A stretch of 32,000 bases of DNA from positions 960,001-992,000 of the forward strand of contig JBAZVE010000001.1 in assembly GCA_041661045.1 (NCBI GenBank), in the 5' to 3' direction. This document shows positions 9,274 to 28,263 of this stretch, one piece after another. The notes beneath the pieces were generated by a model that worked only from the letters and a program-made list of their open reading frames with translations, was not told the DNA's origin and did no database searches. How positions within the stretch are numbered: the stretch's first letter is position 1; every line of letters starts with the position of its first letter. This DNA is from Candidatus Saccharimonadota bacterium. Its GTDB lineage: Bacteria; Patescibacteriota; Gracilibacteria; UBA1369; 2-02-FULL-48-14. The position numbers were made by a program, and so were the translations under genes.

Positions 9274-12200
9274 CTAATTTACTCCTTTTTCTGTGTTGAT
9301 GTCCACATACTCGGAGAGTGCGGGAGGAGTGTTCAAAAGGATGCGGCTGTCGTAACGAATCACGATTCCTCCACCATCAATGGTGGGAGGGCCTACATAT
9401 TTTGCCTTTTGAATCAGAGTTTGAACATTTCCGTAGAAAGATCCGTCCACGGTGAGCTGTTCATCCACCGCGCTGCGTTCGTCCCCATCAAACTTTTGAT
9501 CGGTGTAGTAGACTCCAACCAATTTTTGAGCACCGTCTTCGATGTAAATATCTCCACCCAGGACCACAAAGGCAACGGAGGGGAGATTTTTGTAATCGCC
9601 CGGGTTGCTCACGGTAGCATATTGAATGTTTTTGGTGAGGCGCAAATCGGCATTTTTAACAATGATGGTCCACGCTCCGGAGGGAACGGTGAGCCCACCC
9701 AAGGTCATGGCAGGGTCTGCCTCATTGCTGAGACTTCCATCAAAATACAAGATATTGCTGCTGCTGTTGTTGTTGTTGGTCAGGGCTTTTTCCATCTGTT
9801 CCCATGAGTCATAGGTGCTCACGGATGCCATTTGACTGGTGTCGGCATTACGAGTGGCTTGGCTGATCATGTTGCTGGTGGTGGTTTCCACCGTAGAGCT
9901 GGCCCACAGGTCACTGACCTTGGCCACGATTTCACACACAAAGGAACTCAAATTTCCGACAATACTGTTGGAATCGTCATCGTCACAGAAAGAAACGGTG
10001 GCGAGTGAATAAGTGGAAACAGTGCTGGCGCTGTCTTCGTCATCGTCATCCTCCGTGGGTTCGGTATCTTCCAAGATGATCAAGGCGTCCACATTGCGGT
10101 AATCGCTGCTGGTGGCTTCATCCTCTTCCACGAAGATACAAGAGATGTCGGAACCTCCTTCCAGGGAGACTTCCAGGTACACATCGCCGGCGTTTTGGGT
10201 CATGAGGTAAGAACAGAGCACCACCAATTTTGCTTCGGCGGTGAGTTCTTCCGTATCGTCAAAGACTTCTACGGAAGCATTGTTCTCAAACTCTTCAGTC
10301 AAACATTCGTCTGAGCTGTCTCCACAGTTGAGACCGGAAGTGATGACTCCCACATAACGAATACGGATCACCGCTTCATCTCCATAATCTTCTACAACCG
10401 TTCCGGTGTTCTCAATCACAATATCTTCGGTACTGGTTGGGGAGTGATCAGGGTCGTAACAGACTTCTTCTGTTTCCAAGTTTCCTTCTTCATCATAATC
10501 ACATTCTTCAATGCGAACGGATTCTTCCCCGGGCATTTTGATGTAGGGGAGGTAGGCCATGAAGTTGTTCCGGAATTCTTCGGAGTCTACAAATGCCGCA
10601 AGATCATCGGAGTTTTCTTCTTGTTCATCTCCAAATCCCATCATGGTGATCAAGTTGTAGTCATAAGTGGCTCCACTGGTTCCTTCCACAAGTTCACTGT
10701 AGCTGGTGGCCAGGCGGATGTTTCCACCGGAGTCGCTACCATCTCCTTTGTGTCCTTCCAAAGTGCTGCCCCACATTTCATCGGTGAAGGTGATGGCGTC
10801 TTCATCTCCGCTGGGTTCGTAGGCCAAGGTGTAGAAGGCTCGATCTTCATCGTGGGAGAAGAAGACTCCTTCATCGCTGTAGGAATTTTTCTCGGAAGAG
10901 AAGTTGAAGGTATAAATGAATTTTTCAAAGGATCCCACTTCTTTTTCTTCGGGAGCTTCCGTGATGTTGAGGTCTTCACACACGATATTGTCTTCGAGGA
11001 CTTCAATCTCAGCGCCTTCACAAACCTCTTCAAACGAAACTTCTTCACACACTTGGTCTTCGCCTTCGTCGAATTCAAAGACCATTTCTTCACACTCTCT
11101 ATCGCCTTCGGCGGTTTCGTAACACACTTCAATCACGCGTTCATCGTCTCCGTTTTCGTCACGATCCACACAGATTTCGGTTTCGATGTCTTCACAAGTG
11201 AGGTCGACTTCAAAATCGGTATCGGTGAAATCAATGTCTTCACACACATTTTCAGGAGTTGGAGTGGGGGTTGGGCTTAGGCTGTAGTCATCGCTACATT
11301 CACCGGCTTCTCCTCGAATGTAAGCTTCAATGTCGGCATCGTCTCCGGAATAAGAGTAGCTCACGGTGCTGCTGGTTCCCGAAACGGGGATTTCCAAGTG
11401 TCCGTCGCTGTAACCGGAGGAACTGCCATCACTATAATAGAGTTGGCCGTTGCCGTCTTCGGTGATGACGAGTGTTCCCGTCCAATCGCTGTCGCTTCCT
11501 TGTACGGTTACGGTCTCGGTGTCTTCATTAAGATCAAGGTCGACACAGTAGAGTCCCTCGGGAGGAGTTTGGTCGATGCTAAACGCATCGGCACACGCCT
11601 CGGAGTCGCTCACAATGTAAGAGTTCACGGTGTCCCCGGCATCTCCATTGCGGTAGAAAACAATCACAGTATCATCGGTTCCAAAAACAGGAATTTCCAG
11701 GTGGCCGTCTCCATATTCGGAGGGACTTCCATCGGTGTAGAACAAGGCTCCACTTCCGCTGCGGTTCACCACCAGAGTTCCAGCCCATCCTGGGGCACTG
11801 GCTTCCACGGCAATGGTCACGGCAATGATTCCGGCATCCTCATCTTCGGCCGACATGGTATAAGAGTCGGGATCCATTTGAAGATCGATACAGAATGGGG
11901 CTTCATCTGGAGGAGGAGGCAGGGTCACTTCTTGTGAACAAACGGCCTCTTCTCCAATCATGGAAACGGAAAGTACATTTTTGGCTTCAAAGTTTTCCCA
12001 ACAAATGATTCCGGCGTAGCTGGCGGCTCCACTGAGTCCCATGCTTACGGGGTTGCCGTATTCATTTCTCAAGGTGCTGAGTTCCAGCACGCTCAAGTTC
12101 CCGCTGTAGGCGGTTTCGCTCGGATCGGTGAAACCTTCCACAAGGAGGGTTCCGCTGTAGCTTGCGTCCGAAACGGCCAAGGCAAAATTCCAACATACGG

Positions 12201-14091
12201 TGCTTTCTTCGTAGAGCAGAGCCAAATCTTCTTCATCACTCAGATCGATTGGGGTGGTGCTTCCATCGTCATTATTGATGTAAGGACCGGAGAGGGTGAG
12301 GTCTTCACACACAGGGTTTGGTCCTTCACAAGTTTCACTTTCAATAGTATCTGAACAATACGGTTGATTGATGTCCACGATTTCAATGGTGTCTCCGGGT
12401 TCTCCGGTGTAATACACCACTTTGATGGCAGAGATGTAAAATCCGGTTCCCAAAGAGGGACCTCCGGCACTGCGGCTGAATTCTCCGTTGGGATTGCTGC
12501 TGGTGAGGCGCCAAGGTCCGGGAGTTTCTGTCCCGTCGGTCATGGTGCTTTCCCAACGAATCTCAATGCCACCTTCGGTCATTTCCTCACAGGTGAGGGT
12601 ATGATCGGGTACTCTGACTTCCAAAGATTCGCACACGGGTTTTTGGGGAGTGAGGACATAGGTGAAACCTGTTCGGCACACTCCGGCCACATCATTTTCA
12701 GCTTCTACAAGCACGCTACCGGTTTCATCACTCTGGAAGGAGTCGATGGTCCAGTCGGTGGTGGTGTAAGGAGTGGTGTCCCCATCAAATGTGGCATCCG
12801 TGTCGGTAGCGGAATAGGTCAAATCATAAGGCCAAGGATGGCCGTTGGAGGCCACGGCTTCCACTTCAATGGGAAGGTCCACTTCAGTTTCATCCACGGT
12901 AAAGAGCAGAGTTTCCGGGTCCAAAAGCAAGAGATCGCTACAGTAAGGGAATTCCACTTCGGCTTCACAGAGTCCGGTGCCTTCGTAGCTCACGCCCAAA
13001 TAATCACTCACAAAAGCGGTAAAGCGGTCTCCAGGCATGGAGTCGCGGTATTCCACCTCTGTATCGCCCGTTTCTACGGGTCCGGCATTCCCATTTAAAA
13101 TATTGAGCGAGCCGCCGTAACGGATGTCTCCGCTGGCCGCCGCGCCGTCATAATTATAAGCCTGATAAGTGACATCCACCTCATCGGTGATGACGGTTCC
13201 GTCATTGGCATAAACCGTTGCTTCAAAATCCGTATCACTAAACACATTGTCGAGTCCCACACTGCCCGGATTCAAAACAAGTTTGGAACAAGTGAGCTCC
13301 TCTTCGGTGGGGGGACAAGCGGGAAAATTGGTCACCGCCGTTCCATTGAGCCCGTACCAAAAAATATGATCTTCATCGGGATCCACTTCCTCGATATAAG
13401 AGTCAACTTCTTCTGGATAGGTTTGGTGCCAATTGCTTTCGATGCTGTGCTCAGCGTCCGGATCGATGTAGTAAAACTCCGGTTTCGTCCAACTGGTGGT
13501 GGTGACAATTTGGTCGGTGTCGTAATCCAAGAGCTCGAAAGAAATGCCTTCTATAAAATAATCTCCGCTGGGAAGCCAAGGTTTAAGGTCAATATCTTCA
13601 GGGTCCTCTCTGCCATATTCCCAGAGCAGTCCTTTGGGATTTCCTTCAATCCAGTTTAGGACTTGATAAGTTACGGTGATTCCGTTCCATTCGCCGCCAT
13701 AAACCGTATGAATGACTTCGCCCAAATCTGCTTCTTTATCAAAATTACAGGTTCTGTAGGTTCCGCTTCCATCTGTGCACAGGAAATTGGTGTCGGTGTC
13801 TACCGTTTCCAAAAAATCATCCTCAAACACAATGGCAAAACTGTGGATCACCTCCCAGAATTCTTGTGTGTCTGTATCGGTTGAAGTGTGATAGTGGGTA
13901 TGCTCGTGGGTTGCTCCTACGCAGTAACGGTCTCCTTCATCGTAGCCTCCCTCTGCGACAGCTGGAACCTCATAAGCATCTTCATTGCCTTCCGTGGCTC
14001 GGTCGCCTACAGTCATTAAAGCAAAAGCTTGGATGGGCCAAGCGAGGAGAATGCCGAGAGCGAGGGTGAAAAGGGGGGCGAATTTTTTCAT
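9274..14091 (-). CDS. Giant secreted hyperacidic Cys-rich modular protein, unknown family
   Basis: 1605 aa. Sec-type signal peptide MKKFAPLFTLALGILLAWPIQAFA. 36 Cys by my count, and D/E far exceed K/R (aa 951-1050 are 43/100 D+E by hand count). About eight Cys-delimited modules of ~90-140 aa. The C-terminal ~150 aa are non-acidic. No LPXTG, C-terminal TM, RTX or other signature that I recognise. Confidence 0.9.
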   Translation of the reverse strand: MKKFAPLFTLALGILLAWPIQAFALMTVGDRATEGNEDAYEVPAVAEGGYDEGDRYCVGATHEHTHYHTSTDTDTQEFWEVIHSFAIVFEDDFLETVDTDTNFLCTDGSGTYRTCNFDKEADLGEVIHTVYGGEWNGITVTYQVLNWIEGNPKGLLWEYGREDPEDIDLKPWLPSGDYFIEGISFELLDYDTDQIVTTTSWTKPEFYYIDPDAEHSIESNWHQTYPEEVDSYIEEVDPDEDHIFWYGLNGTAVTNFPACPPTEEELTCSKLVLNPGSVGLDNVFSDTDFEATVYANDGTVITDEVDVTYQAYNYDGAAASGDIRYGGSLNILNGNAGPVETGDTEVEYRDSMPGDRFTAFVSDYLGVSYEGTGLCEAEVEFPYCSDLLLLDPETLLFTVDETEVDLPIEVEAVASNGHPWPYDLTYSATDTDATFDGDTTPYTTTDWTIDSFQSDETGSVLVEAENDVAGVCRTGFTYVLTPQKPVCESLEVRVPDHTLTCEEMTEGGIEIRWESTMTDGTETPGPWRLTSSNPNGEFSRSAGGPSLGTGFYISAIKVVYYTGEPGDTIEIVDINQPYCSDTIESETCEGPNPVCEDLTLSGPYINNDDGSTTPIDLSDEEDLALLYEESTVCWNFALAVSDASYSGTLLVEGFTDPSETAYSGNLSVLELSTLRNEYGNPVSMGLSGAASYAGIICWENFEAKNVLSVSMIGEEAVCSQEVTLPPPPDEAPFCIDLQMDPDSYTMSAEDEDAGIIAVTIAVEASAPGWAGTLVVNRSGSGALFYTDGSPSEYGDGHLEIPVFGTDDTVIVFYRNGDAGDTVNSYIVSDSEACADAFSIDQTPPEGLYCVDLDLNEDTETVTVQGSDSDWTGTLVITEDGNGQLYYSDGSSSGYSDGHLEIPVSGTSSTVSYSYSGDDADIEAYIRGEAGECSDDYSLSPTPTPTPENVCEDIDFTDTDFEVDLTCEDIETEICVDRDENGDDERVIEVCYETAEGDRECEEMVFEFDEGEDQVCEEVSFEEVCEGAEIEVLEDNIVCEDLNITEAPEEKEVGSFEKFIYTFNFSSEKNSYSDEGVFFSHDEDRAFYTLAYEPSGDEDAITFTDEMWGSTLEGHKGDGSDSGGNIRLATSYSELVEGTSGATYDYNLITMMGFGDEQEENSDDLAAFVDSEEFRNNFMAYLPYIKMPGEESVRIEECDYDEEGNLETEEVCYDPDHSPTSTEDIVIENTGTVVEDYGDEAVIRIRYVGVITSGLNCGDSSDECLTEEFENNASVEVFDDTEELTAEAKLVVLCSYLMTQNAGDVYLEVSLEGGSDISCIFVEEDEATSSDYRNVDALIILEDTEPTEDDDDEDSASTVSTYSLATVSFCDDDDSNSIVGNLSSFVCEIVAKVSDLWASSTVETTTSNMISQATRNADTSQMASVSTYDSWEQMEKALTNNNNSSSNILYFDGSLSNEADPAMTLGGLTVPSGAWTIIVKNADLRLTKNIQYATVSNPGDYKNLPSVAFVVLGGDIYIEDGAQKLVGVYYTDQKFDGDERSAVDEQLTVDGSFYGNVQTLIQKAKYVGPPTIDGGGIVIRYDSRILLNTPPALSEYVDINTEKGVN
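11245..11892 (-). repeat. Tandem duplication of a ~100-115-aa module inside the 1605-aa protein (aa 734-848 and 849-949)
   Basis: The two copies align as WAGTLVVNRSGSGALFYTDGSPSEYGDGHLEIPVFGTDDTVIVFYRNGDAGDTVNSYIVSDSEACADAFSI versus WTGTLVITEDGNGQLYYSDGSSSGYSDGHLEIPVSGTSSTVSYSYSGDDADIEAYIRGEAGECSDDYSL. Both copies start with C-[IV]-D-L. The copies are diverged at the DNA level. Confidence 0.8.
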
Positions 14092-14103: not shown

Positions 14104-14256
14104 TTATTGCATTGGAGACTCCTGTCCGCCGGGTTCCATTTGGATTGAGCTTCCTTCTTGGACAGGGTTGTATTTGATATTTTCAACCTGTTCTTGTGTC
14201 CCACACGCAGTGAGCAGGAGAGACAGGCTTGACATTATAATAAAAATTGTTCTCAT
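14104..14256 (-). CDS. 50-aa lipoprotein (unannotated small ORF between the two giant genes)
   Basis: Hand translation of the minus strand gives MRTIFIIMSSLSLLLTACGTQEQVENIKYNPVQEGSSIQMEPGGQESPMQ*, with ATG 14256 and TAA 14106-14104. Hydrophobic signal plus lipobox LTAC. It fills the gap between the giants, 20 nt after the upstream stop and 12 nt before the downstream ATG. It falls below the track's length cutoff. Confidence 0.5.
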   Translation of the reverse strand: MRTIFIIMSSLSLLLTACGTQEQVENIKYNPVQEGSSIQMEPGGQESPMQ

Positions 14257-14276
14257 AGTCAATGGGTGAATGGTTA

Positions 14277-17200
14277 TTATCGTGGGGAGTTTTGTCCTCC
14301 TTGTGGGGTAATGGTGTGGTCCCCTGGATTGTTTTGTGGCAATTCGTCTGGACTACCCCAAAGATTTGGCTTGTCTTGCCCAGGCAACGGAGGAATGAAT
14401 CCTCCGCCTGGCACAATAGGAATGACTCCTGGGCTCACGCGCAAGGTGGTGTAGTCTACGCCTATTTCCGGGCGAACTTCTTGAGTGAGCGCTTGCCGTG
14501 TGGCGGCGACTTTGACTTCTTTGGGCTGGGTGAGTGTGTAATCGATTTCCACATTGCGGGCCACTGTGAGGTTTTCACACTTGCCATAGAGACAAACAAA
14601 GAATTCTTCGGTTAAAGTTACTGGATTTCCACGGACCATGCTTTGACCATCTTTGAGTAGTTTAAGAACATCTTGAGTGAACTCTTGGGCGAGCTCCGGG
14701 TGAGTTGGCACTCCTGTTTCCACCATTTGCTTGATGTCTCTGCCATCTTCTGGTCCATACAGTTTGTCTGCAATTTGAGCCAGACGAAGGCCGGCCATGT
14801 CCTTTCGAATGTCTTTAAACGAGGCATTTGCTGGAAGCTTTTTCCATTCCGATAAGCCTTTTATGCTTTGTGCGGCTGGGTCGTCCTTTTCAGCGTACAT
14901 CGCGCCATTCATTCCCCCGTGGATATTGAAGTCGTAGTAACCTTGTAAAAGTTTTCGAGTTCCGCTGTCGTCGATGGCAATGAGGAATTCGCTGCCTTCG
15001 GGGAGAGAACTTACGGTATTTGCATTTGCTTGAAGAGATTCTATGACTCTTGCTCCATCTTCTTCACCAAATATTGCCTGCGCAGCCTCGGTATTCCATT
15101 TCCATGGGATCTCTTTTGCGTCAGGTCGGCCGATTTGCATGGCGTATTGGTGAGCCAAGAGGATTTGTTGATCTGTGGGTTCCGTGACGCCGATGTTTTT
15201 GTATCGTTCTGTGATCAGTGAATCGATAGTGTCGCGGTTGGCTGCAACGGCCAAATGGTCGTAATCCATTTTGTCTGTTTTTACGAGTTGTTCAGCTACG
15301 GCCTTAGCGTCTTCGTGGTCATCATGGGTGAGACCTTCAAAGAGTTTGACCTCGCGAACGCCTTCTTGCATGCGAACGGTTTCCCATTCTACTTCGCGTG
15401 CGTTTTGTTTGGCGCCTTCGAGGCTGAGGTCGCCCAAGACGAGTCCATTGTCTTTTGCTTCGACATCAGTGCGAGTCAGGATATTCTCTCTTAAAAGTGG
15501 ATTTTCTACTTTGTCGTTCTTCAGAAGTCGAGTGTCGGTGGTGCCGTCTTTGGTTTGAATCCATTCCATATAACTGGGACTTTGAGACATGATCTGCTCG
15601 ATGGTGGTGTTTTCATCGCTCGTGAGTCCCACGAAGAACAGTTTTTTCCCAGTGTAAGGATCGGTGGTTTCAAGAGTGCGGAGGAGCAAGGCATCGCCAC
15701 TGTCCAAGTTGAGGAGAGGCGCTCCGCCGTCTCCATCTTGAATGGCTTCTATGTCGCTCATTGCATCAGGGTAGAAGCGCACCATTCCATCGATATTTTG
15801 GAGGGTCAACTGAGTGAATTTTCCGTTGAAGGTGAGCACGGCTTGACCTTTGAGTTTTTCGTTCATTGCGGCCAAGGCCTTGCTCGCGTTTGCAATAGCT
15901 TCGGCTTCGGCATTGGCTTTGTCACCATCATTTTCGTAAAGGAATTCATCTTTGAGCTCAATGGGTTCCCAATCGGGTTGAACTTCTTTGTAGTCTACTG
16001 GCAAGGCGACGGGTAGGCCGCTCTTCATGGAATCGCTGACCATGTCCGGAGTTTCCAATAGGGCGGGAATGTACCGTGTTACGGGACGGAAGCCCACGCC
16101 AAAGGTGATGTAGGCACCCAGGGCGAAGCCACCCTCTTTGAGACCGACTGCGGCGGTGGGCCCGGCGCTGATGTATTTGATTTGTTTGCTCCATTTGCTG
16201 AAGTCTTTGGTTTCTCCGTAGGCGATTCGGTAATTTACATAGGATTCCCATTCGGCCTTGAGGGCCTTTTTCATGGGGTCTTCAACATGCTCAAGATCAT
16301 CTATTTGTGCATAAATTTCGGTTCGAATAGTCTCCAATTCTTCTTTATGTGTTTCTTTAAACTCGCGGATTCTTTTTTGTAAAACTTTATCGAGATTGCG
16401 ATCGAGGCTTAGCGGATGAAATCCTGCAACATCCCCGCTTTTACTGAGGCCCAGATTTGCTCCCGTGCCAAGCGATAGCGTTCCGGATTCATTGAGGTCG
16501 CGACTGATGCCAAGCCCAAAGGTTGGCCCAATCAATCCTTGAGGATCGCTGAGTCCGGCGCTGAGGCGGGCATAAGCTTCCAAGTGAGTGCGGCCTTTTT
16601 TACCCAAGTCTATTTGGTAGATCAGACCTCCGTGCATTCGGAGCACAGGCAGGACAGTTCCTGCAGAAACGGTCCATTGCAAACTGAGTCGCCCTGGGAA
16701 ATCCTTATTAAGGAGAGGGATGAGTGCGCCGGCTTCCAGTGCGGCCATGGCGTGTACTTCTTCGCCGGGTTGAATGGCGGCCAATCCGCTGAGCACTCCT
16801 TGAATGTGTCCGCCTAAGTCTTCTTTAAGGGCCTTTTCTTGTTCGTCGGTGAGGGTTCCTGCGGGAATTTGTGCGGTAAGCTCATCCACCATTCCGTTTG
16901 TTGCGGTGTTTACATCTGCAGTGATTTCTTCCGCTTCAATATTTTGCAGCACTCGCATTTCGGCGGCGGCAAAGGCCATGGCTCCGTAACGGATGGCGGC
17001 AATTTGATCTTTGCTGAGGGTGAATGTGGGATCGTTGAGATTCTCTAGTGTGATGGGGGCTACACTCACCGCTTTTCCATATCCCAAATGGTTTTTTTCG
17101 CCGTTGATCTTGTTTTGACCATGAATTAAATAAGTGTTGAGGGTTTCCAGGTAACTGGCCCCATTTTCGTGGTTCATCAATTTATCAAAGGCACGGGCGT

Positions 17201-18593
17201 GAGAAATGACTTGCTGTTCGCCATAACTTTTGTAGCCTTTGCTGACGCGTTGGCGAGCAGTACTCATCCAGTTGTCTGCGTTCACCGTCGGACGGTCTTT
17301 GCCCGAAAGTGTGAAGGCGATGGCTTGAAAGACATTGTATGAAATGCTGGGCCCCTGGCTGTTGCGATCAAAAACTTCTCCAGTGAGGCGGAACATGGCG
17401 GCTTTTTCTCCGGTGAGACCTTCGTAAGCGGCCTCTCGCTGTGTTTTTGCCTCCTTCTCTATCCTTATTTTTTCGGCGTCTTCTTGGGCGGAGGGAAGTT
17501 CATTTATTAAAGTCTGTACGGCGGCAAAAAATTTTTCTAAGTGAGGAGTGTTGGCTTCCAATTGATCTTCATTTTTCCCATACACGGCTTTTGCGATTTC
17601 GTTGGAATTGATTTCAAAACGACCTCCCTTAGAAAGAATGCCTCCGTGGAGTGCTTTCCATGTCATGCGGGTGTCGATGAGGCCCACTTGGTCGCGATGA
17701 ATGGCAGCCATCATGCGGAGCGCATTGTAAATGGCTTCTCCACTCTCAAGATCTTTAATGGTCTCGATGTGTTCAAAAGAATTTTCTCCACGGAAAAGCT
17801 CCGGAATTTCTACGCTTGTTCCCGGAAAGCTGACCAGAGTCAGTTCGCTTTGTGCAGGTAGTGCGACCGCTTCGGGAGTTTCTGTATCTTCGGAGGCTGC
17901 GGCAGCCGCTTTTTCTCTAGCAATTTCGTCTTCAACCATAGCTTTTTCATCATCCGTGAAGTGGGTGGAGGGGGTTTCTTCCGGTTCTTCCTCCGGCCCT
18001 TCCCACTCTGATTCAGCAAAGTCTGTTGAAAGTCCCGCAGCCTCTGGTGTCACGGTTACTGGGCCATCTGCCCCATCGAAGGTGATGGGTTCTTGAGCCA
18101 CTTGAGCGGTGCTTGGAATAACTCTTGTTGTGCTCCTTAGGCTGGCTTCAAAGCTTTGCTGATCCAGCGGTGCTGCTTGAGGTACGGGACGCACTAAGTT
18201 TTTGTCTCTTAGGGCGATGTGTTGGTTCAATTGGGTTTGACGGAAGGTGAAGAGGTCTCGCACTTCTTTTTGAGAAAGTGCAAAGTCCTGAATCCTCTCA
18301 AAAAACCTTTCCAGCGCTTCTTTATAACTTTTTGGGCTGAGGATATCCTTTAAGTCTTGAATACGCTTCAGCTCGTTTAGGATCCGATCTAGATTCTCCA
18401 AAAGCACTGCAGCATCGGCGGGGCTGGCTTTATCAATCAATTTGTTTAAATGGCGAACACTTTCCGGAAGGAGAAATTCGGCTTTTTCCACCTGGTCTCT
18501 GACTTCATGAAGTTCGTTTTTGATTGGAGCTTGCTCCGACTGATGAAGTGCCATACGGGTGGGTTTTATTTTTGTTTTAAATCTATTAATCAT
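14277..18593 (-). CDS. Giant protein (1438 aa) without signal peptide, unknown family
   Basis: Long ORF with an ATG start (alternative ATG at 18554). N-terminal ~130 aa look helical or coiled-coil, followed by an acidic linker (EWEGPEEEPEETP...). Gly-rich amphipathic beta-like segments lie mid-protein, and the tail is Pro/Gly-rich. Only 2 Cys. No TM, signal peptide or catalytic motif that I recognise. Confidence 0.85.
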   Translation of the reverse strand: MINRFKTKIKPTRMALHQSEQAPIKNELHEVRDQVEKAEFLLPESVRHLNKLIDKASPADAAVLLENLDRILNELKRIQDLKDILSPKSYKEALERFFERIQDFALSQKEVRDLFTFRQTQLNQHIALRDKNLVRPVPQAAPLDQQSFEASLRSTTRVIPSTAQVAQEPITFDGADGPVTVTPEAAGLSTDFAESEWEGPEEEPEETPSTHFTDDEKAMVEDEIAREKAAAAASEDTETPEAVALPAQSELTLVSFPGTSVEIPELFRGENSFEHIETIKDLESGEAIYNALRMMAAIHRDQVGLIDTRMTWKALHGGILSKGGRFEINSNEIAKAVYGKNEDQLEANTPHLEKFFAAVQTLINELPSAQEDAEKIRIEKEAKTQREAAYEGLTGEKAAMFRLTGEVFDRNSQGPSISYNVFQAIAFTLSGKDRPTVNADNWMSTARQRVSKGYKSYGEQQVISHARAFDKLMNHENGASYLETLNTYLIHGQNKINGEKNHLGYGKAVSVAPITLENLNDPTFTLSKDQIAAIRYGAMAFAAAEMRVLQNIEAEEITADVNTATNGMVDELTAQIPAGTLTDEQEKALKEDLGGHIQGVLSGLAAIQPGEEVHAMAALEAGALIPLLNKDFPGRLSLQWTVSAGTVLPVLRMHGGLIYQIDLGKKGRTHLEAYARLSAGLSDPQGLIGPTFGLGISRDLNESGTLSLGTGANLGLSKSGDVAGFHPLSLDRNLDKVLQKRIREFKETHKEELETIRTEIYAQIDDLEHVEDPMKKALKAEWESYVNYRIAYGETKDFSKWSKQIKYISAGPTAAVGLKEGGFALGAYITFGVGFRPVTRYIPALLETPDMVSDSMKSGLPVALPVDYKEVQPDWEPIELKDEFLYENDGDKANAEAEAIANASKALAAMNEKLKGQAVLTFNGKFTQLTLQNIDGMVRFYPDAMSDIEAIQDGDGGAPLLNLDSGDALLLRTLETTDPYTGKKLFFVGLTSDENTTIEQIMSQSPSYMEWIQTKDGTTDTRLLKNDKVENPLLRENILTRTDVEAKDNGLVLGDLSLEGAKQNAREVEWETVRMQEGVREVKLFEGLTHDDHEDAKAVAEQLVKTDKMDYDHLAVAANRDTIDSLITERYKNIGVTEPTDQQILLAHQYAMQIGRPDAKEIPWKWNTEAAQAIFGEEDGARVIESLQANANTVSSLPEGSEFLIAIDDSGTRKLLQGYYDFNIHGGMNGAMYAEKDDPAAQSIKGLSEWKKLPANASFKDIRKDMAGLRLAQIADKLYGPEDGRDIKQMVETGVPTHPELAQEFTQDVLKLLKDGQSMVRGNPVTLTEEFFVCLYGKCENLTVARNVEIDYTLTQPKEVKVAATRQALTQEVRPEIGVDYTTLRVSPGVIPIVPGGGFIPPLPGQDKPNLWGSPDELPQNNPGDHTITPQGGQNSPR

Positions 18594-21102: not shown

Positions 21103-21984
21103 TTAGACCTCCCTCCGTTTCTCTTGCACCTTTAGATTGATCGCATGCGCAATGGCATGGTGGTCTTTGCAGAGTGGGGCCAGGTAATGAGGATCATGCG
21201 CGTGGCTCAGTGCGAAGGTTTGGGTGTGGTGGACTTGCTCCGCCGGCTTTCTACAGCTTGGGATTGAGCACTTACTGCCGTGCTCTTGATCTAAAACCTT
21301 CTTGGTGCGGGCGGGAATATGACGAGATTGTGTCGGCTCCAGGCCTTCGCTTATGGCCACTTTCTCTTCAGCGATCTCTTGGTCCCGTTTATCAAGGAGA
21401 TCCGTAAGGATTTCATCCACATTGAGGCCTTTTTCTTGTAAGGTCAGGAGTCTTTTTGTAAGCTCCGTGCTGAGCCGAAGGTCTTGCGCGCGCAAGGATT
21501 TTGCCTCAAATAATGGCTGTAGTAAGCCATTTCTATTTTGGTCGGCTGCCTGTTCAGCCATGATTTTCTGATCCCGTACCAAAGTCTCCACTGCACTTTG
21601 AGAAAGATTTTGAACCGCTTCGGCCCATTCTTCTTCATTCTCAGTGCTTGCCACGGAGGCCACCCTTGCAAGCTTGTTCACGCTTACACTTCCCTCCACC
21701 AAGAGGGCCCTCAAAGCGGGTTTATCTGAAAAACATTTCTCAAGATTCAGGGCGGTTCTTACTTGCTGTTCACTCAGTCCCGCAAGTTTAAATGCACATT
21801 CAAAAATGGATCCGAATCCTTTCCTTTCATACAAACGGCGACGGTTGAGTTCGGGGAGAAGTCCTATAAACTTATGCCTCCATTCCAGGGCGTTTCTTCC
21901 ATAAAGTCGTGCCTTTTCGTACAGTTCCCCGTCTGTGAGGCGAGTCGAATAGTCAGGCGTGGATGTCAAAGAATTGGGGGTCAT
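21103..21984 (-). CDS. HNH endonuclease domain protein (DUF222-like N-terminal region)
   Basis: C-terminal HNH/zinc-ribbon pattern CSIPSCRKPAEQVHHTQTF...LAPLCKDHHAIAH. The N-terminal helical region RRRLYERKGFGSIFECAFKLAGLSEQQ is typical of this family. The ORF extends to a GTG at 22026; I prefer ATG 21984. Confidence 0.85.
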   Translation of the reverse strand: MTPNSLTSTPDYSTRLTDGELYEKARLYGRNALEWRHKFIGLLPELNRRRLYERKGFGSIFECAFKLAGLSEQQVRTALNLEKCFSDKPALRALLVEGSVSVNKLARVASVASTENEEEWAEAVQNLSQSAVETLVRDQKIMAEQAADQNRNGLLQPLFEAKSLRAQDLRLSTELTKRLLTLQEKGLNVDEILTDLLDKRDQEIAEEKVAISEGLEPTQSRHIPARTKKVLDQEHGSKCSIPSCRKPAEQVHHTQTFALSHAHDPHYLAPLCKDHHAIAHAINLKVQEKRREV

Positions 21985-22128
21985 ATTTGTAGGGTTAATG
22001 AACCTTAATTCTAAACCAAAATCCACCTCATTAACAGGTTAAAAGCATCCTTTTGAGTGGCACTCAGTCAAGAATATGGTATGGTGAATGTGTGCTCACC
22101 CTTGTGCGCCACATTCTAGTAAAACCCA

Positions 22129-22970: not shown

Positions 22971-24284
22971 GTGGAAGCCATCAAAAATCTCTTTCGCAAA
23001 CTTCTTCCGCATCAGCATCCCATTCGTTTGTTTTTTCATAAGGTGGTGGCCATTGCGGCCGCTTTTAGATACGGCTTCCCCGCCAATGGCATGACGGTGA
23101 TTGCGGTGACGGGGACCAAAGGAAAAACCAGCACCTCCAATATGATCCACAAGATTTTTACGGAGGCGGGAAAGAAAACGGGCCTGCTCACCACCATCAA
23201 CTTTAAAGTGGGTGAGGATGAAGAGCGCAACACCACCAATCACACCACCATTGGTCCTTTTCAACTTCAAAAAAAGATTCGTGAAATGCGCGATGCTCAG
23301 TGTGAAGTTTTAGTGGTGGAGGTGACCAGCCACGCCATTGTTCAATCGCGCCTTTGGGGTATTAATGTGGATACGGTGGTCTTCACCAACTTGAGCCAAG
23401 ATCACTTGGACTACCACGGGACCATGGAGGAATACCGCAACGCCAAGGGACTTTTGTTCGAAGCCCTCAATCACTCGCCACGAAAAGTGGGCGTGTCTAA
23501 AATTTCTGTGGTGAATCAAGATGATGCCGAGCATGAATATTTTAATAAATTTCCTGCCGACCAGCTCTTTGAATACGGGATTGTTAAGGGCAGCTACACC
23601 GCACGAACTGTGGAGCCTTACGCGGAGGGAAATCGCTTTTTGCTTCGCATCCCCAATGGGGAGTTGCCTATTGATTTAAAAATTCCCGGCCGAATGAATG
23701 TCTATAATGCACTTGCGGCAGCCACGGTAGCCACGGCGCACCGCATCAATCTTGCCACTATTCAAAAAGCCTTGGAGTCCATGAAGCCTCTGCCCGGAAG
23801 ATTGGAGGTGATTGAGGAAGGCCAGCCCTTCACCGTGGTGGTGGACTTTGCACACACGGAAGAATCTTTGAAACAGGTTTTGCAGATGTTTCGTGAACTC
23901 ACCAAGGGCAAGCTTATTGTGGTTTTTGGGGCCACGGGGGAGCGGGATACCGGCAAGCGACCTAAAATGGGAGCGGTGGCGCATCAATATGCCGACCATA
24001 TTGTGCTCACCAATGACGATCCTTATGGAGAAGACCCTTTAAAGATTGCGGAGATGGTTCGTGGAGGTATTCCTCGGCATGAGGGCCAGGGCTTTTGGCA
24101 GGTTTTGAATCGAAAAGAAGCCATTCGTTTGGGGCTTTCCTTGGCGCAAGAGGCAGCCGATACGGTTATTGTGGCGGGGAAAGGAGCGGAGGCCTATCAG
24201 TTGCTGGGGAATCAGAGGATTCCGCACGATGATCGCTTGGTGGTTCGTGAAGTGCTTTCAAAAGCCATTGATATCGCCTTATGA
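22971..24284 (+). CDS. murE: UDP-N-acetylmuramoyl-L-alanyl-D-glutamate ligase (MurE family), short N-terminus
   Basis: P-loop VTGTKGKTS, then TNLSQDHLDYHGTMEEYRNAK, DFAHTEESL and GATGERDTGKRPKMG. 437 aa with the P-loop already at aa 48-54. The stop overlaps the truB ATG (ATGA). Confidence 0.9.
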   Translation: MEAIKNLFRKLLPHQHPIRLFFHKVVAIAAAFRYGFPANGMTVIAVTGTKGKTSTSNMIHKIFTEAGKKTGLLTTINFKVGEDEERNTTNHTTIGPFQLQKKIREMRDAQCEVLVVEVTSHAIVQSRLWGINVDTVVFTNLSQDHLDYHGTMEEYRNAKGLLFEALNHSPRKVGVSKISVVNQDDAEHEYFNKFPADQLFEYGIVKGSYTARTVEPYAEGNRFLLRIPNGELPIDLKIPGRMNVYNALAAATVATAHRINLATIQKALESMKPLPGRLEVIEEGQPFTVVVDFAHTEESLKQVLQMFRELTKGKLIVVFGATGERDTGKRPKMGAVAHQYADHIVLTNDDPYGEDPLKIAEMVRGGIPRHEGQGFWQVLNRKEAIRLGLSLAQEAADTVIVAGKGAEAYQLLGNQRIPHDDRLVVREVLSKAIDIAL

Positions 24285-27215: not shown

Positions 27216-27746
27216 ATGAAAATATTTTCACTTCTCGTTCTATCATCTCTGCTTTTTACGGCCTGCCAGGTGCGTGAAAAAACGGACGAATCCCCTGTGG
27301 ATGAAGAGGTCTTTGTGGAACTCAGCTCTGAGGGAGGGCTTGTACCCGCTCAGCTTGAGGCCAGTTTTATGAGCGATCATCAATCGTTTTCTTATAGCTT
27401 TCGATACGACAGCAGTTTGCTTCAAGTTTTGGATACTCCTTTGGAAGGGGCTTCTAAATTTGGAGCGAGCTTTCAAGTGACCGGCGGGGCTGAAATTATT
27501 GCGATGAGCGAATGGCTTTCTGATCTTGATATTGTCCCCGAACTGTCGGCTTCTCAAGTGTGGGGTCGTAATCAAGTCTATAGATACCTTGTCCCTGAGG
27601 GAGTCTGCACCTTGGATCGCGCGGTGATTCGCAGTGCCGAAGAAGGCTTGGTGATTCAGATGCGTTTGTGCCCGGGAGATGATGCTGAACTTGGGAAAGA
27701 AGCTTTTGAAAGTCTGCTCACTGGAGTAAACTTGAAGAGTCTCTAA
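27216..27746 (+). CDS. Lipoprotein, unknown function
   Basis: 176 aa. Signal MKIFSLLVLSSLLFTAC with a lipobox Cys. The mature part is acidic. Confidence 0.7.
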   Translation: MKIFSLLVLSSLLFTACQVREKTDESPVDEEVFVELSSEGGLVPAQLEASFMSDHQSFSYSFRYDSSLLQVLDTPLEGASKFGASFQVTGGAEIIAMSEWLSDLDIVPELSASQVWGRNQVYRYLVPEGVCTLDRAVIRSAEEGLVIQMRLCPGDDAELGKEAFESLLTGVNLKSL

Positions 27747-27771: not shown

Positions 27772-28263
27772 ATGAAAAACTCTCTACTTGTCATCTTTTC
27801 TTCTTTATTCCTTCTTGCGTGTTCGACCCCAGCGCTGCCTGTCGAAGAGGGTGAGCCTGAGGTTTCAGCATCGGAGGTGGTGGTGTGGCAAGATATTGCA
27901 TTTACTCTTCCTGAGGGTTGGACTGCTGAAGAACAAATGCAAGGTTACGATATCTCTGTTCCTGATGAAAATTATGAAGTGACCTTGGTTTGGACTGTGT
28001 CTCAAGAATCTGAAGGGGCATTACCTTTGGAAGGAAGCGAGGTGGAAACCACTACGGAGGGTATACAGCTTTATAATATTGGGTGTGGAGGGGCTTACTA
28101 CTGTGGAAACTTTGCTTATGCCGGACAGGCTTATAGTTACGGCTTTCAGGTGAGAAGCACGCAGCCCGTCCCTGAGAATTTGGATGGGGTTTGGACTCCT
28201 GATACGGATGTGACTCAAGAAGATTTGGAGGATTTCATTGCTAGCGCTCATCTGGCGGACTAG
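27772..28263 (+). CDS. Lipoprotein, unknown function
   Basis: 163 aa. Signal MKNSLLVIFSSLFLLAC with a lipobox Cys. The mature part is acidic. Confidence 0.7.
   Translation: MKNSLLVIFSSLFLLACSTPALPVEEGEPEVSASEVVVWQDIAFTLPEGWTAEEQMQGYDISVPDENYEVTLVWTVSQESEGALPLEGSEVETTTEGIQLYNIGCGGAYYCGNFAYAGQAYSYGFQVRSTQPVPENLDGVWTPDTDVTQEDLEDFIASAHLAD

Follow-up and report, generated by a model that had tools for sequence, protein, structure and literature searches.

What does a bacterium do with a secreted protein of 1605 residues that combines extreme acidity with 36 cysteines, and how are these cysteines used? The question is raised by an open reading frame (ORF) at positions 9274..14091, minus strand, of a 32,000-nucleotide stretch of contig JBAZVE010000001.1 (assembly GCA_041661045.1, positions 960,001 to 992,000), which we refer to as the window; the ORF starts with ATG, stops with TAG and encodes what we call the target protein. 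An earlier reading of the letters alone, hereafter the original prediction, had proposed a metal-stabilised, disulfide-stapled beta-sandwich stalk or surface coat. Comparison of orthologs points to structural disulfides that close individual modules on themselves, and we consider it probable, though far from certain, that the target is a Sec-exported, disulfide-clamped, polyanionic beta-sandwich fibre or coat protein, anchored or assembled via its C-terminal module.

Export signal and composition

The target protein opens with a Sec signal peptide (residues 1-24, MKKFAPLFTLALGILLAWPIQAFA; 14020..14091, minus strand, as are all target features below), laid out as a KK n-region, a hydrophobic core and an A-x-A site, with predicted cleavage after AFA and before LMTV. 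The only hydrophobic stretch with a Kyte-Doolittle (KD) value above 1.6 falls within residues 4-29, that is, in the signal peptide, and the N-termini of all full-length orthologs are equivalent to that of the target. The target N-terminus is a class I Sec signal, with neither a lipobox Cys nor a prepilin motif, and the class III signal of type IV pilins and pseudopilins (G followed by F/M-T-L-I/V-E) was not found. These features bear out the cleavable-looking signal peptide of the original prediction and, as judged from sequence, support export of the protein via Sec.

Cysteine makes up 2.24% of the protein (36 residues), aspartate plus glutamate (D+E) 21.1% and lysine plus arginine (K+R) 3.6%. 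Direct titration gives an isoelectric point (pI) of 3.34 and a net charge of -281 at pH 7, in agreement with the extreme acidity first proposed; the value of 4.05 returned by Biopython is only that tool's lower bound. The housekeeping proteins of the window have pI values of 4.4-9.9 and 0-1.7% Cys, the exceptions being two small secreted-looking ORFs. Because the other proteins are ordinary, the acidity and Cys content set this protein apart, and a proteome-wide acidity of the halophile type is ruled out. Along the chain K+R amounts to 1-6 per 100 residues and the net charge to -15..-39, compared with 7-8 and -5..-8, respectively, in the last ~150 residues. The claim that basic residues are rare until this final part holds in that K+R roughly doubles there, and is only partly right overall.

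Cysteine pairing across orthologs

Conservation was assessed in 10 homologs of 40-58% identity, and covariation and parity in 25 full-length orthologs. Among the homologs, Cys was the most conserved residue type, with a mean identity of 0.95 and 27 of the 36 positions invariant, followed by Trp at 0.75. Across the 25 orthologs, variable Cys columns come in pairs that appear and disappear in the same sequences (501/588, 529/571, 974/1015, 1471/1495 and a number of pairs in inserts). Of these variable columns, 50% have a twin of identical pattern; among 11 other types of residue the share is 0-21%. A crude count of the mature chains gives an even Cys number in 21 of 25 orthologs, and correction for the N-terminally truncated ortholog P0016 raises this to 22 of 25. 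When the chains are cut at their linkers, 191 of 200 segments hold an even number of cysteines, and the odd ones are mostly adjacent odd-odd pairs that result from misplaced cuts.

The C-terminal module was examined in 146 diverse sequences, where its cysteines are conserved in 68-99% of cases. Here 1369 and 1386 are absent together in 10 of 10 instances, 1263 and 1318 in 6 of 6, and 1197 is absent too in 15 of the 16 sequences that lack 1211; the candidate disulfides of this module are 1197-1211, 1263-1318, 1369-1386 and, by elimination, 1256-1293. The partner protein encoded beside the target has no signal peptide and holds only 2-7 cysteines in 1400-2800 residues across loci, as would be expected of a protein that stays in the reducing compartment. 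Conservation, parity, paired gain and loss and co-absence all agree with the disulfide-capable array first proposed, and they support the view that the target cysteines behave as structural disulfide partners. With a predicted export signal and Cys that are conserved, even in number and gained and lost in pairs, the target is a candidate disulfide-bonded exoprotein and putative substrate of DsbA/MdbA-type enzymes.

Two connectivity models were compared: one staples together the cysteines that flank each linker (259-268, 375-384 and onward), the other clamps each module internally (57-259 in the head, then 268-375, 384-472, 487-579, 595-718, 734-833 and 849-932). The staple, which is suggested by the short C-x9-18-C spacing, demands odd Cys counts in the terminal segments and was rejected, as all 25 orthologs have an even count in the N-terminal segment. 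Deletions of whole modules did not help to choose between the models. Parity favours a clamp that would join the first to the last strand within each module, closing each module on itself. The disulfides of the original prediction are therefore retained, but not their stapling across module borders. A self-contained clamp per module would allow modules to be gained, lost and multiplied as cassettes.

Module architecture and fold

In the AlphaFold models, residues 27-960 are nearly pure strand with a mean predicted local distance difference test (pLDDT) score of 75, and residues 925-1605 reach 61, with good beta domains up to ~1290 and again at ~1424-1524. Foldseek matches consist only of strings of immunoglobulin (Ig)- or macroglobulin (MG)-like beta-sandwiches, with expect values (E) down to 3e-14. 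The fold neighbours include alpha2-macroglobulin/complement MG domains, hydin ASH domains and integrin legs and, among surface proteins, the surface-layer (S-layer) proteins SbsC and Sap, Bap, GhpA, Cna, BspA, RbmA and Gram-positive pilins; a viral structure library gave generic Ig/FN3 matches only. Together with an internal repeat, these results place the target among the Ig/MG-like arrays, that is, tandem all-beta sandwich domains with short linkers, and support the fold part of the proposed stalk or coat. The cysteines lie mostly at module borders, as had been noted, with AlphaFold placing them on the opening residue of the first strand and immediately ahead of the last one. Clear homology to a known adhesin or S-layer family, which the original prediction had named as evidence against itself, was not found, and the whole sequence matched no Pfam, NCBIfam, PDB-sequence or PHROGs family above threshold.

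The N-terminal head domain (residues 25-263; 13303..14019) is beta-rich with a pLDDT of ~80. Its cysteines 57, 105, 115 and 259 are present in 25 of 25 orthologs, each with an even segment count, and probably pair as 57-259 and 105-115. Near the mature N-terminus the head carries a C..HxH..[YFW] motif (CVGATHEHTHY, residues 57-67; 13891-13923, minus strand). This motif recurs in 26 of the 118 full-length members of the family, none of 590 background windows contains it, and it may be a metal site in this conserved domain.

Six beta-sandwich modules follow. Module 1 (residues 264-379; 12955..13302) has the putative clamp C268-C375, with both cysteines in 25 of 25 orthologs and exactly two Cys in the segment in 24 of 25; module 2 (residues 380-479; 12655..12954) has the putative clamp C384-C472 and likewise two Cys in 24 of 25. 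The likely pairs of module 3 (residues 480-591; 12319..12654) are C487-C579 and C501-C588. C501 and C588 occur together in the same 8 of the 25 orthologs, four other orthologs have the alternative pair in columns 529/571, and the module is missing as a whole unit in P0028 and P0030. Module 4 (residues 592-726; 11914..12318) would combine a clamp, C595-C718, with a core pair, C633-C697, in CW motifs, and this four-Cys type is tandemly multiplied in P0026. Module 5 (residues 727-841; 11569..11913), preceded by the linker LPPPPDE (723-729), has the candidate clamp C734-C833, and module 6 (residues 842-941; 11269..11568), followed by SPTPTPTPEN (937-946), has C849-C932; both Thr/Pro linkers had been pointed out originally. 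A fragment-based self-comparison aligns 728-839 with 843-938 at 38% identity (E=1e-10), and by this measure module 6 is a tandem duplicate of module 5. It is present in 16 and absent in 9 of the 25 orthologs, C849 and C932 co-occurring, which in the alignment corresponds to cassette copy-number variation.

Beyond the modules lies a hyper-acidic, Cys-dense beta region (residues 942-1045; 10957..11268; AlphaFold strands at pLDDT 72-84), with eight cysteines (950, 966, 974, 990, 1000, 1015, 1024 and 1038), including the co-varying pair C974 and C1015, and up to 43 D/E per 100 residues. It is followed by a Cys-free beta domain conserved in the subfamily (residues 1046-1190, KFIYTFNF..VFFSHDEDRAFYTL; 10522..10956), the densest block of invariant columns. 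The C-terminal module comprises a Cys-bearing half with family-wide conservation (residues 1191-1386; 9934..10521) and a beta-rich tail that is free of Cys and conserved up to its final residue (residues 1387-1605; 9277..9933).

The C-terminal module defines a protein family

A profile of residues 1045-1605 was searched against 1.84 billion representatives at E<=1e-3 and retrieved 426 proteins, 122 of them at E<1e-30; this exhaustive representative search was the productive one, and word-indexed profile searches added almost nothing. Outside the close orthologs the match is restricted to the last ~350-400 residues, and the module ends at most 10 residues from the C-terminus in 167 of 168 sequences. 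The members are mostly 1200-2600 residues long and have signal peptides, a median of 15% D+E and 6% K+R, and ~2% Cys, and those that are named come from Peregrinibacteria or Patescibacteria. Their N-terminal regions are completely different, some carrying DUF4215 Cys-rich repeats (the distant members P0046, P0058 and P0065 only) or an SdrD_B domain. One homolog (L021, contig CAYHTX010000108.1, 4.7 kb, 49% identity) is binned as 'uncultured Gammaproteobacteria'; because all other loci are Peribacteria, Gracilibacteria or Patescibacteria, this contig is probably mis-binned.

Within the module, the Cys-bearing half shows the motifs CxYLxTxNAGDV and SSxxCE, and the tail shows GAxTxIV, PSxAFxV, GVYY, GSxYG and RYDxRxLLNTPPG along short successive strands, with a pLDDT of 72-86 at ~1424-1524 and weaker values beyond. 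The polar residues D1303, D1315, E1387, R1414, D1581, R1583 and N1587 are near-invariant across the family. A diverse profile of the module found no PDB or Pfam match, and 15 diverse modules had no Pfam or NCBIfam match. On this comparison, the ~415-residue C-terminal module is a conserved, previously undescribed, family-defining domain.

Acidity is conserved in bulk

Bulk net charge is kept in all 25 orthologs at -0.11 to -0.19 per residue, with -0.04 to -0.115 in the last 200 residues; in the target, the tail (1387-1605) is the least acidic part, at -0.05 per residue versus -0.19 for the rest. The mean acidic retention of D/E sites is 0.54, and no more than 26 of the 309 stay acidic in >=95% of orthologs. 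Because bulk charge is conserved while single D/E sites are not, the acidity appears to be chiefly a compositional bulk property under selection, giving a polyanionic surface and not a lattice of separate binding sites, with room for a limited number of cation sites. Around the target cysteines, C-x-D occurs at 15 of 36 positions (p=9e-7) and C-E at 12 of 36 (p=3e-4), a context that could reflect a cation site, strand capping or oxidase recognition.

Locus, synteny and genetic code

A search with two peptide patterns from block 1046-1190, which target the close subfamily only, yielded 20 confirmed loci, all in genome records with different names and mostly labelled Peribacteria. The gene order TIM, giant partner, often an ORF of 45-78 residues, target gene and holA is found in the window, at loci L001, L003, L025, L027 and L028 and on the P0121 contig. 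Among five distant members checked, four occupy the same slot between TIM and partner on one side and holA on the other, some of them sharing the tail alone (E ~1e-30). A shared slot despite tail-only similarity suggests that many members of the family represent positional orthologs of a single gene that changes very quickly, and across the loci compared the target gene appears single-copy, syntenic and very fast-evolving. A phage or mobile origin was ruled out by the lack of PHROGs matches, the housekeeping neighbourhood and the conserved synteny.

The upstream partner gene (14277..18593, minus strand; 1438 residues) occupies the same slot at all of these loci and on the P0121 contig, with protein lengths of 1438-3229 residues. 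The window's partner protein has no signal peptide, no transmembrane (TM) segment, 2 Cys and a pI of 4.65, and matches nothing in Pfam, NCBIfam, PDB or PHROGs. It is 39% identical to its L001 counterpart and matches that of L003 at E=3e-68 to 6e-71, and BLASTP detects no similarity to that of L025. Between the two giant genes lies an ORF for a small acidic lipoprotein (14104..14262, minus strand; 52 residues from TTG, with a likely ATG at 14256), whose signal MRTIFIIMSSLSLLLTAC, followed by G, contains the lipobox LLLTAC; it is in the same frame as the target and ends four codons before the target ATG. Small lipoproteins occupy the same slot at L001:9859-9996 (..LLIPGC) and L027:9763-9999 (..MLLAC), a small membrane ORF does so in L028, and no ORF fills it in L003 or L025.

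Directly upstream of the target, a near-consensus sigma-70-type promoter-like site (TTGACT-17-TATAAT; 14234..14262, minus strand) has 11 of 12 consensus matches. Because the start codons of the small lipoprotein ORF lie in the same stretch, the two readings partly compete; promoter-like sites show no overall enrichment in the region, and this one is a consensus match only.

Other neighbours with envelope functions in the window are a Wzy_C O-antigen-ligase-like protein, a Mur ligase, a family-4 glycosyltransferase and FtsX. Two adjacent ORFs on the plus strand, 27216-27746 (176 residues) and 27772-28263 (163 residues), have the lipoprotein signals LLFTAC and FLLAC and pI values of 4.0 and 3.07, each with two Cys beyond the lipobox Cys and no Pfam match. 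A further ORF (21103-22026, minus strand; 307 residues, no Pfam match) has a C-terminus, CSIPSC...HHTQ...HDPHYLAPLCKDHHAIAH, that resembles an HNH-type nuclease motif.

The source carries the NCBI label Candidatus Gracilibacteria, and the closest database entry is an identical NCBI protein; the closest genomes are labelled Peribacteria. The Gracilibacteria label raised the question of code 25 (UGA=Gly, as in BD1-5 Gracilibacteria), and TGA use was therefore checked. Code 25 was ruled out for this genome, as TGA terminates several well-placed genes, one example in the window being the ATGA stop/start overlap at 24281. Since TGA ends well-spaced genes and the target ORF has TAA/TAG boundaries, with an in-frame TAA five codons upstream of its ATG, code 11 applies to the source organism despite the Gracilibacteria label.

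Relation to known surface proteins

The original prediction regarded an acidic, disulfide-capable array as unusual. The novelty implied is not supported, since Cys-rich secreted giants were reported for the same class in 2016, namely the large signal-peptide-bearing Cys-rich extracellular proteins of Peribacteria, with a proposed role in rigidity or attachment (Anantharaman et al. 2016, PeerJ 4:e1607, PMC4736985). Those of Candidatus (Ca.) Peribacter riflensis measure 1655 +/- 751 residues, contain 7.2 +/- 2.4% Cys in a 14-gene cluster against a proteome mean of 1.67%, have no functional annotation and are strain-variable by indels (PMC4736985). The target resembles them in class, size, signal peptide, predicted extracellular location, lack of functional annotation and variation by indels, and distant members of its family share the DUF4215 Cys-rich repeats. 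Its own Cys content is above that proteome mean and the other, housekeeping proteins of the window but far below 7.2%. It differs in that it lacks DUF4215 and in that it stands alone with one partner in a housekeeping neighbourhood and not in a 14-gene cluster. No family, C-terminal module, disulfide map or synteny was defined in that study (PMC4736985).

Nor does the statement hold that the lineage is not known for extracytoplasmic oxidative folding. A family of MdbA-like thiol-disulfide oxidoreductases is enriched in the candidate phyla radiation (CPR), with CxxC in 92% of its members and VKOR as the commonest neighbour (Meheust et al., bioRxiv 10.1101/335083), and Ca. P. riflensis encodes one DsbB (PMC4736985 supplement).

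Upon comparison with other systems, the target shares with the MdbA/VKOR-folded pilins and adhesins of Actinobacteria (Actinomyces oris FimA, Corynebacterium diphtheriae SpaA) the form of a Sec-exported beta-sandwich surface protein of a monoderm-type cell. The stability of those proteins depends on post-translocational disulfides, their oxidoreductase type is the one enriched in CPR, and pilins are among the target's fold neighbours. In contrast to them, the target has no LPXTG, pilin motif or isopeptide-domain families, is far larger and far more acidic, and would carry one clamp per module along the whole chain. Its C-terminus (...LNTPPALSEYVDINTEKGVN) bears no LPXTG sortase signal and no hydrophobic window. 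With the S-layer proteins SbsC and Sap it has in common an acidic, exported multi-domain beta-sandwich chain encoded by a single-copy gene, one terminus being conserved and the rest diverging rapidly. It lacks SLH, CWB2 or any other known anchoring domain, and its pI of 3.3 is more extreme; Pfam and NCBIfam detected no SLH (PF00395) or CWB2 anchoring repeats in the target or in the 15 diverse C-terminal modules. S-layer proteins are typically Cys-free.

The RTX/BIg adhesins MpIBP, LapA and SiiE are likewise very acidic, long arrays of Ig-like modules that form extended surface stalks. They use type I secretion and have C-terminal RTX repeats, no N-terminal signal peptide, essentially no Cys and near-identical repeats, whereas the target is Sec-exported with diverged, Cys-clamped modules and matches no RTX or BIg family, which places it outside the type I adhesins. 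A match to the T5SS/PEP-CTERM repeat TIGR04393 (residues 860-889; 15.9 bits, E=0.01) is below the 23-bit cut-off. In the literature searched, we found no description of the C-terminal module as a family signature, of a two-giant-gene cassette with a lipoprotein or of a one-clamp-per-module rule with an inferred disulfide map.

Interpretation and alternative explanations

The reading that we consider probable describes a polyanionic protein of ~170 kDa on the surface of a Peribacteria (Peregrinibacteriota, CPR) bacterium. After signal cleavage, the chain would fold outside the membrane into the head, six Ig/MG-like modules joined by short Pro/Thr linkers, the hyper-acidic region, the subfamily beta domain and the ~415-residue C-terminal module. 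Each module would be an autonomous oxidative-folding unit in which a disulfide links the start of the first strand to the start of the last strand, some modules having a second, internal disulfide, and whole modules could be added, deleted or copied as cassettes with no thiol left unpaired. Oxidation would presumably be carried out by MdbA-like/VKOR or DsbB machinery. The C-terminal module would most likely be cell-proximal, holding or assembling the protein on the envelope, possibly with the upstream small lipoprotein, and the strongly negative N-terminal array, which evolves fast, would face outward as a fibre or coat in contact with the environment, with hosts or with phages. The structural statements are well supported, and the analysis shows the export signal, the beta-sandwich array, the pairing pattern of the cysteines, the family and the synteny; orientation, anchoring, the oxidase and the coat or attachment function are what we infer.

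Several points weigh against this interpretation. The C-terminal module is poorly modelled (pLDDT <50 for ~1293-1419 and the last ~50 residues), its proposed anchoring role is drawn by analogy for a domain that matches nothing known, and the target has no cell-wall-binding domain, sortase signal, lipobox or TM anchor. The disulfide pairing rests on covariation and parity, and no Dsb, MdbA or VKOR gene or CxxC protein was found within the 32-kb window. Furthermore, the distant member P0046 lies in a different genomic context, and the holA locus (and TIM locus) of Ca. P. riflensis is arranged differently. The orientation could also be the reverse, with the tail as a distal functional head.

A host-attachment adhesin would have this reverse arrangement, its conserved C-terminal module being a distal binding or effector head and the protein being retained otherwise or released. 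We regard this as rather unlikely. Surface proteins usually diverge fastest where they face a variable target and are conserved where they dock to the cell's envelope; here the C-terminus is the conserved part. The single-copy, syntenic gene is also unlike typical multi-copy, patchily distributed adhesins, and the cleavable signal peptide leaves no N-terminal anchor. Such an adhesin would nonetheless fit the adhesins and pilins among the fold neighbours and the lack of a recognisable anchor motif anywhere in the target, as well as the predicted symbiotic life of Peribacteria and the attachment to other cells proposed for their proteins (PMC4736985). That the module is instead a catalytic or toxic domain on a long stalk, such as a wall hydrolase or host effector, seems distinctly improbable. 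Its near-invariant polar residues, its size and its lack of a match to any known anchor would suit such a role, but profile searches against PDB, Pfam, NCBIfam and PHROGs returned no enzyme or toxin family, polymorphic toxins normally have variable C-terminal tips where this one is conserved, and no immunity-like gene is adjacent, the downstream gene being holA.

Turning to the stalk, the original prediction of metal stabilisation corresponds to a discrete-site, Ca2+-dependent array in which acidic clusters at the junctions would bind Ca2+ and rigidify the chain in a cadherin- or RTX BIg-like manner, with disulfides as an additional lock. This is compatible with the disulfide-clamped fibre or coat and is possible, though less likely than not. 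The extreme acidity, the C-x-D enrichment near border cysteines and the 26 acidic positions kept in >=95% of orthologs, several of them beside border Cys (D581, D835), speak for it; the poor retention of most D/E sites under a conserved bulk charge speaks against it, and Pfam and NCBIfam detect no Ca2+-binding family (cadherin, Calx-beta, RTX, TSP3 and others). By comparison, cysteines that serve as metal-cluster or Zn ligands or as free thiols are very unlikely, given Cys conservation, paired gain and loss, parity and the contrast with the Cys-poor, signal-less partner. High Cys conservation alone would fit metal ligands too, and the conserved HxH adjoins C57; yet Sec exports the target as an unfolded chain, its Cys positions form no CxxC or CxxCxxC clusters, and co-varying partners lie 10-125 residues apart.

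Significance

Attachment to other cells is the presumed way of life of the ultra-small CPR bacteria, yet their surface molecules are almost entirely uncharacterised. The locus provides a concrete, widely conserved candidate for a CPR surface protein, whose family is recognisable by a defined C-terminal module in 426 representative clusters. The rule of one clamp per module would explain how stalk cassettes are gained and lost, and it makes the target a candidate natural substrate for the MdbA/VKOR/DsbB enzymes noted in CPR genomes; the analysis also supplies specific candidate disulfide pairs and a bait domain for envelope partners. Nothing is overturned by these findings, as Cys-rich secreted giants and oxidative folding had already been reported for the lineage. 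More tentatively, and with the odds against it, the cassette of TIM, partner, lipoprotein, target and holA may be the principal lineage-defining surface apparatus of Peribacteria/Peregrinibacteria, an S-layer-like coat or host-contact organelle built on an undescribed ~415-residue anchoring or assembly domain, with an ectodomain evolving so fast that positional orthologs keep that domain only. If the cassette were indeed the main surface apparatus of the lineage, the significance of the locus would rise.

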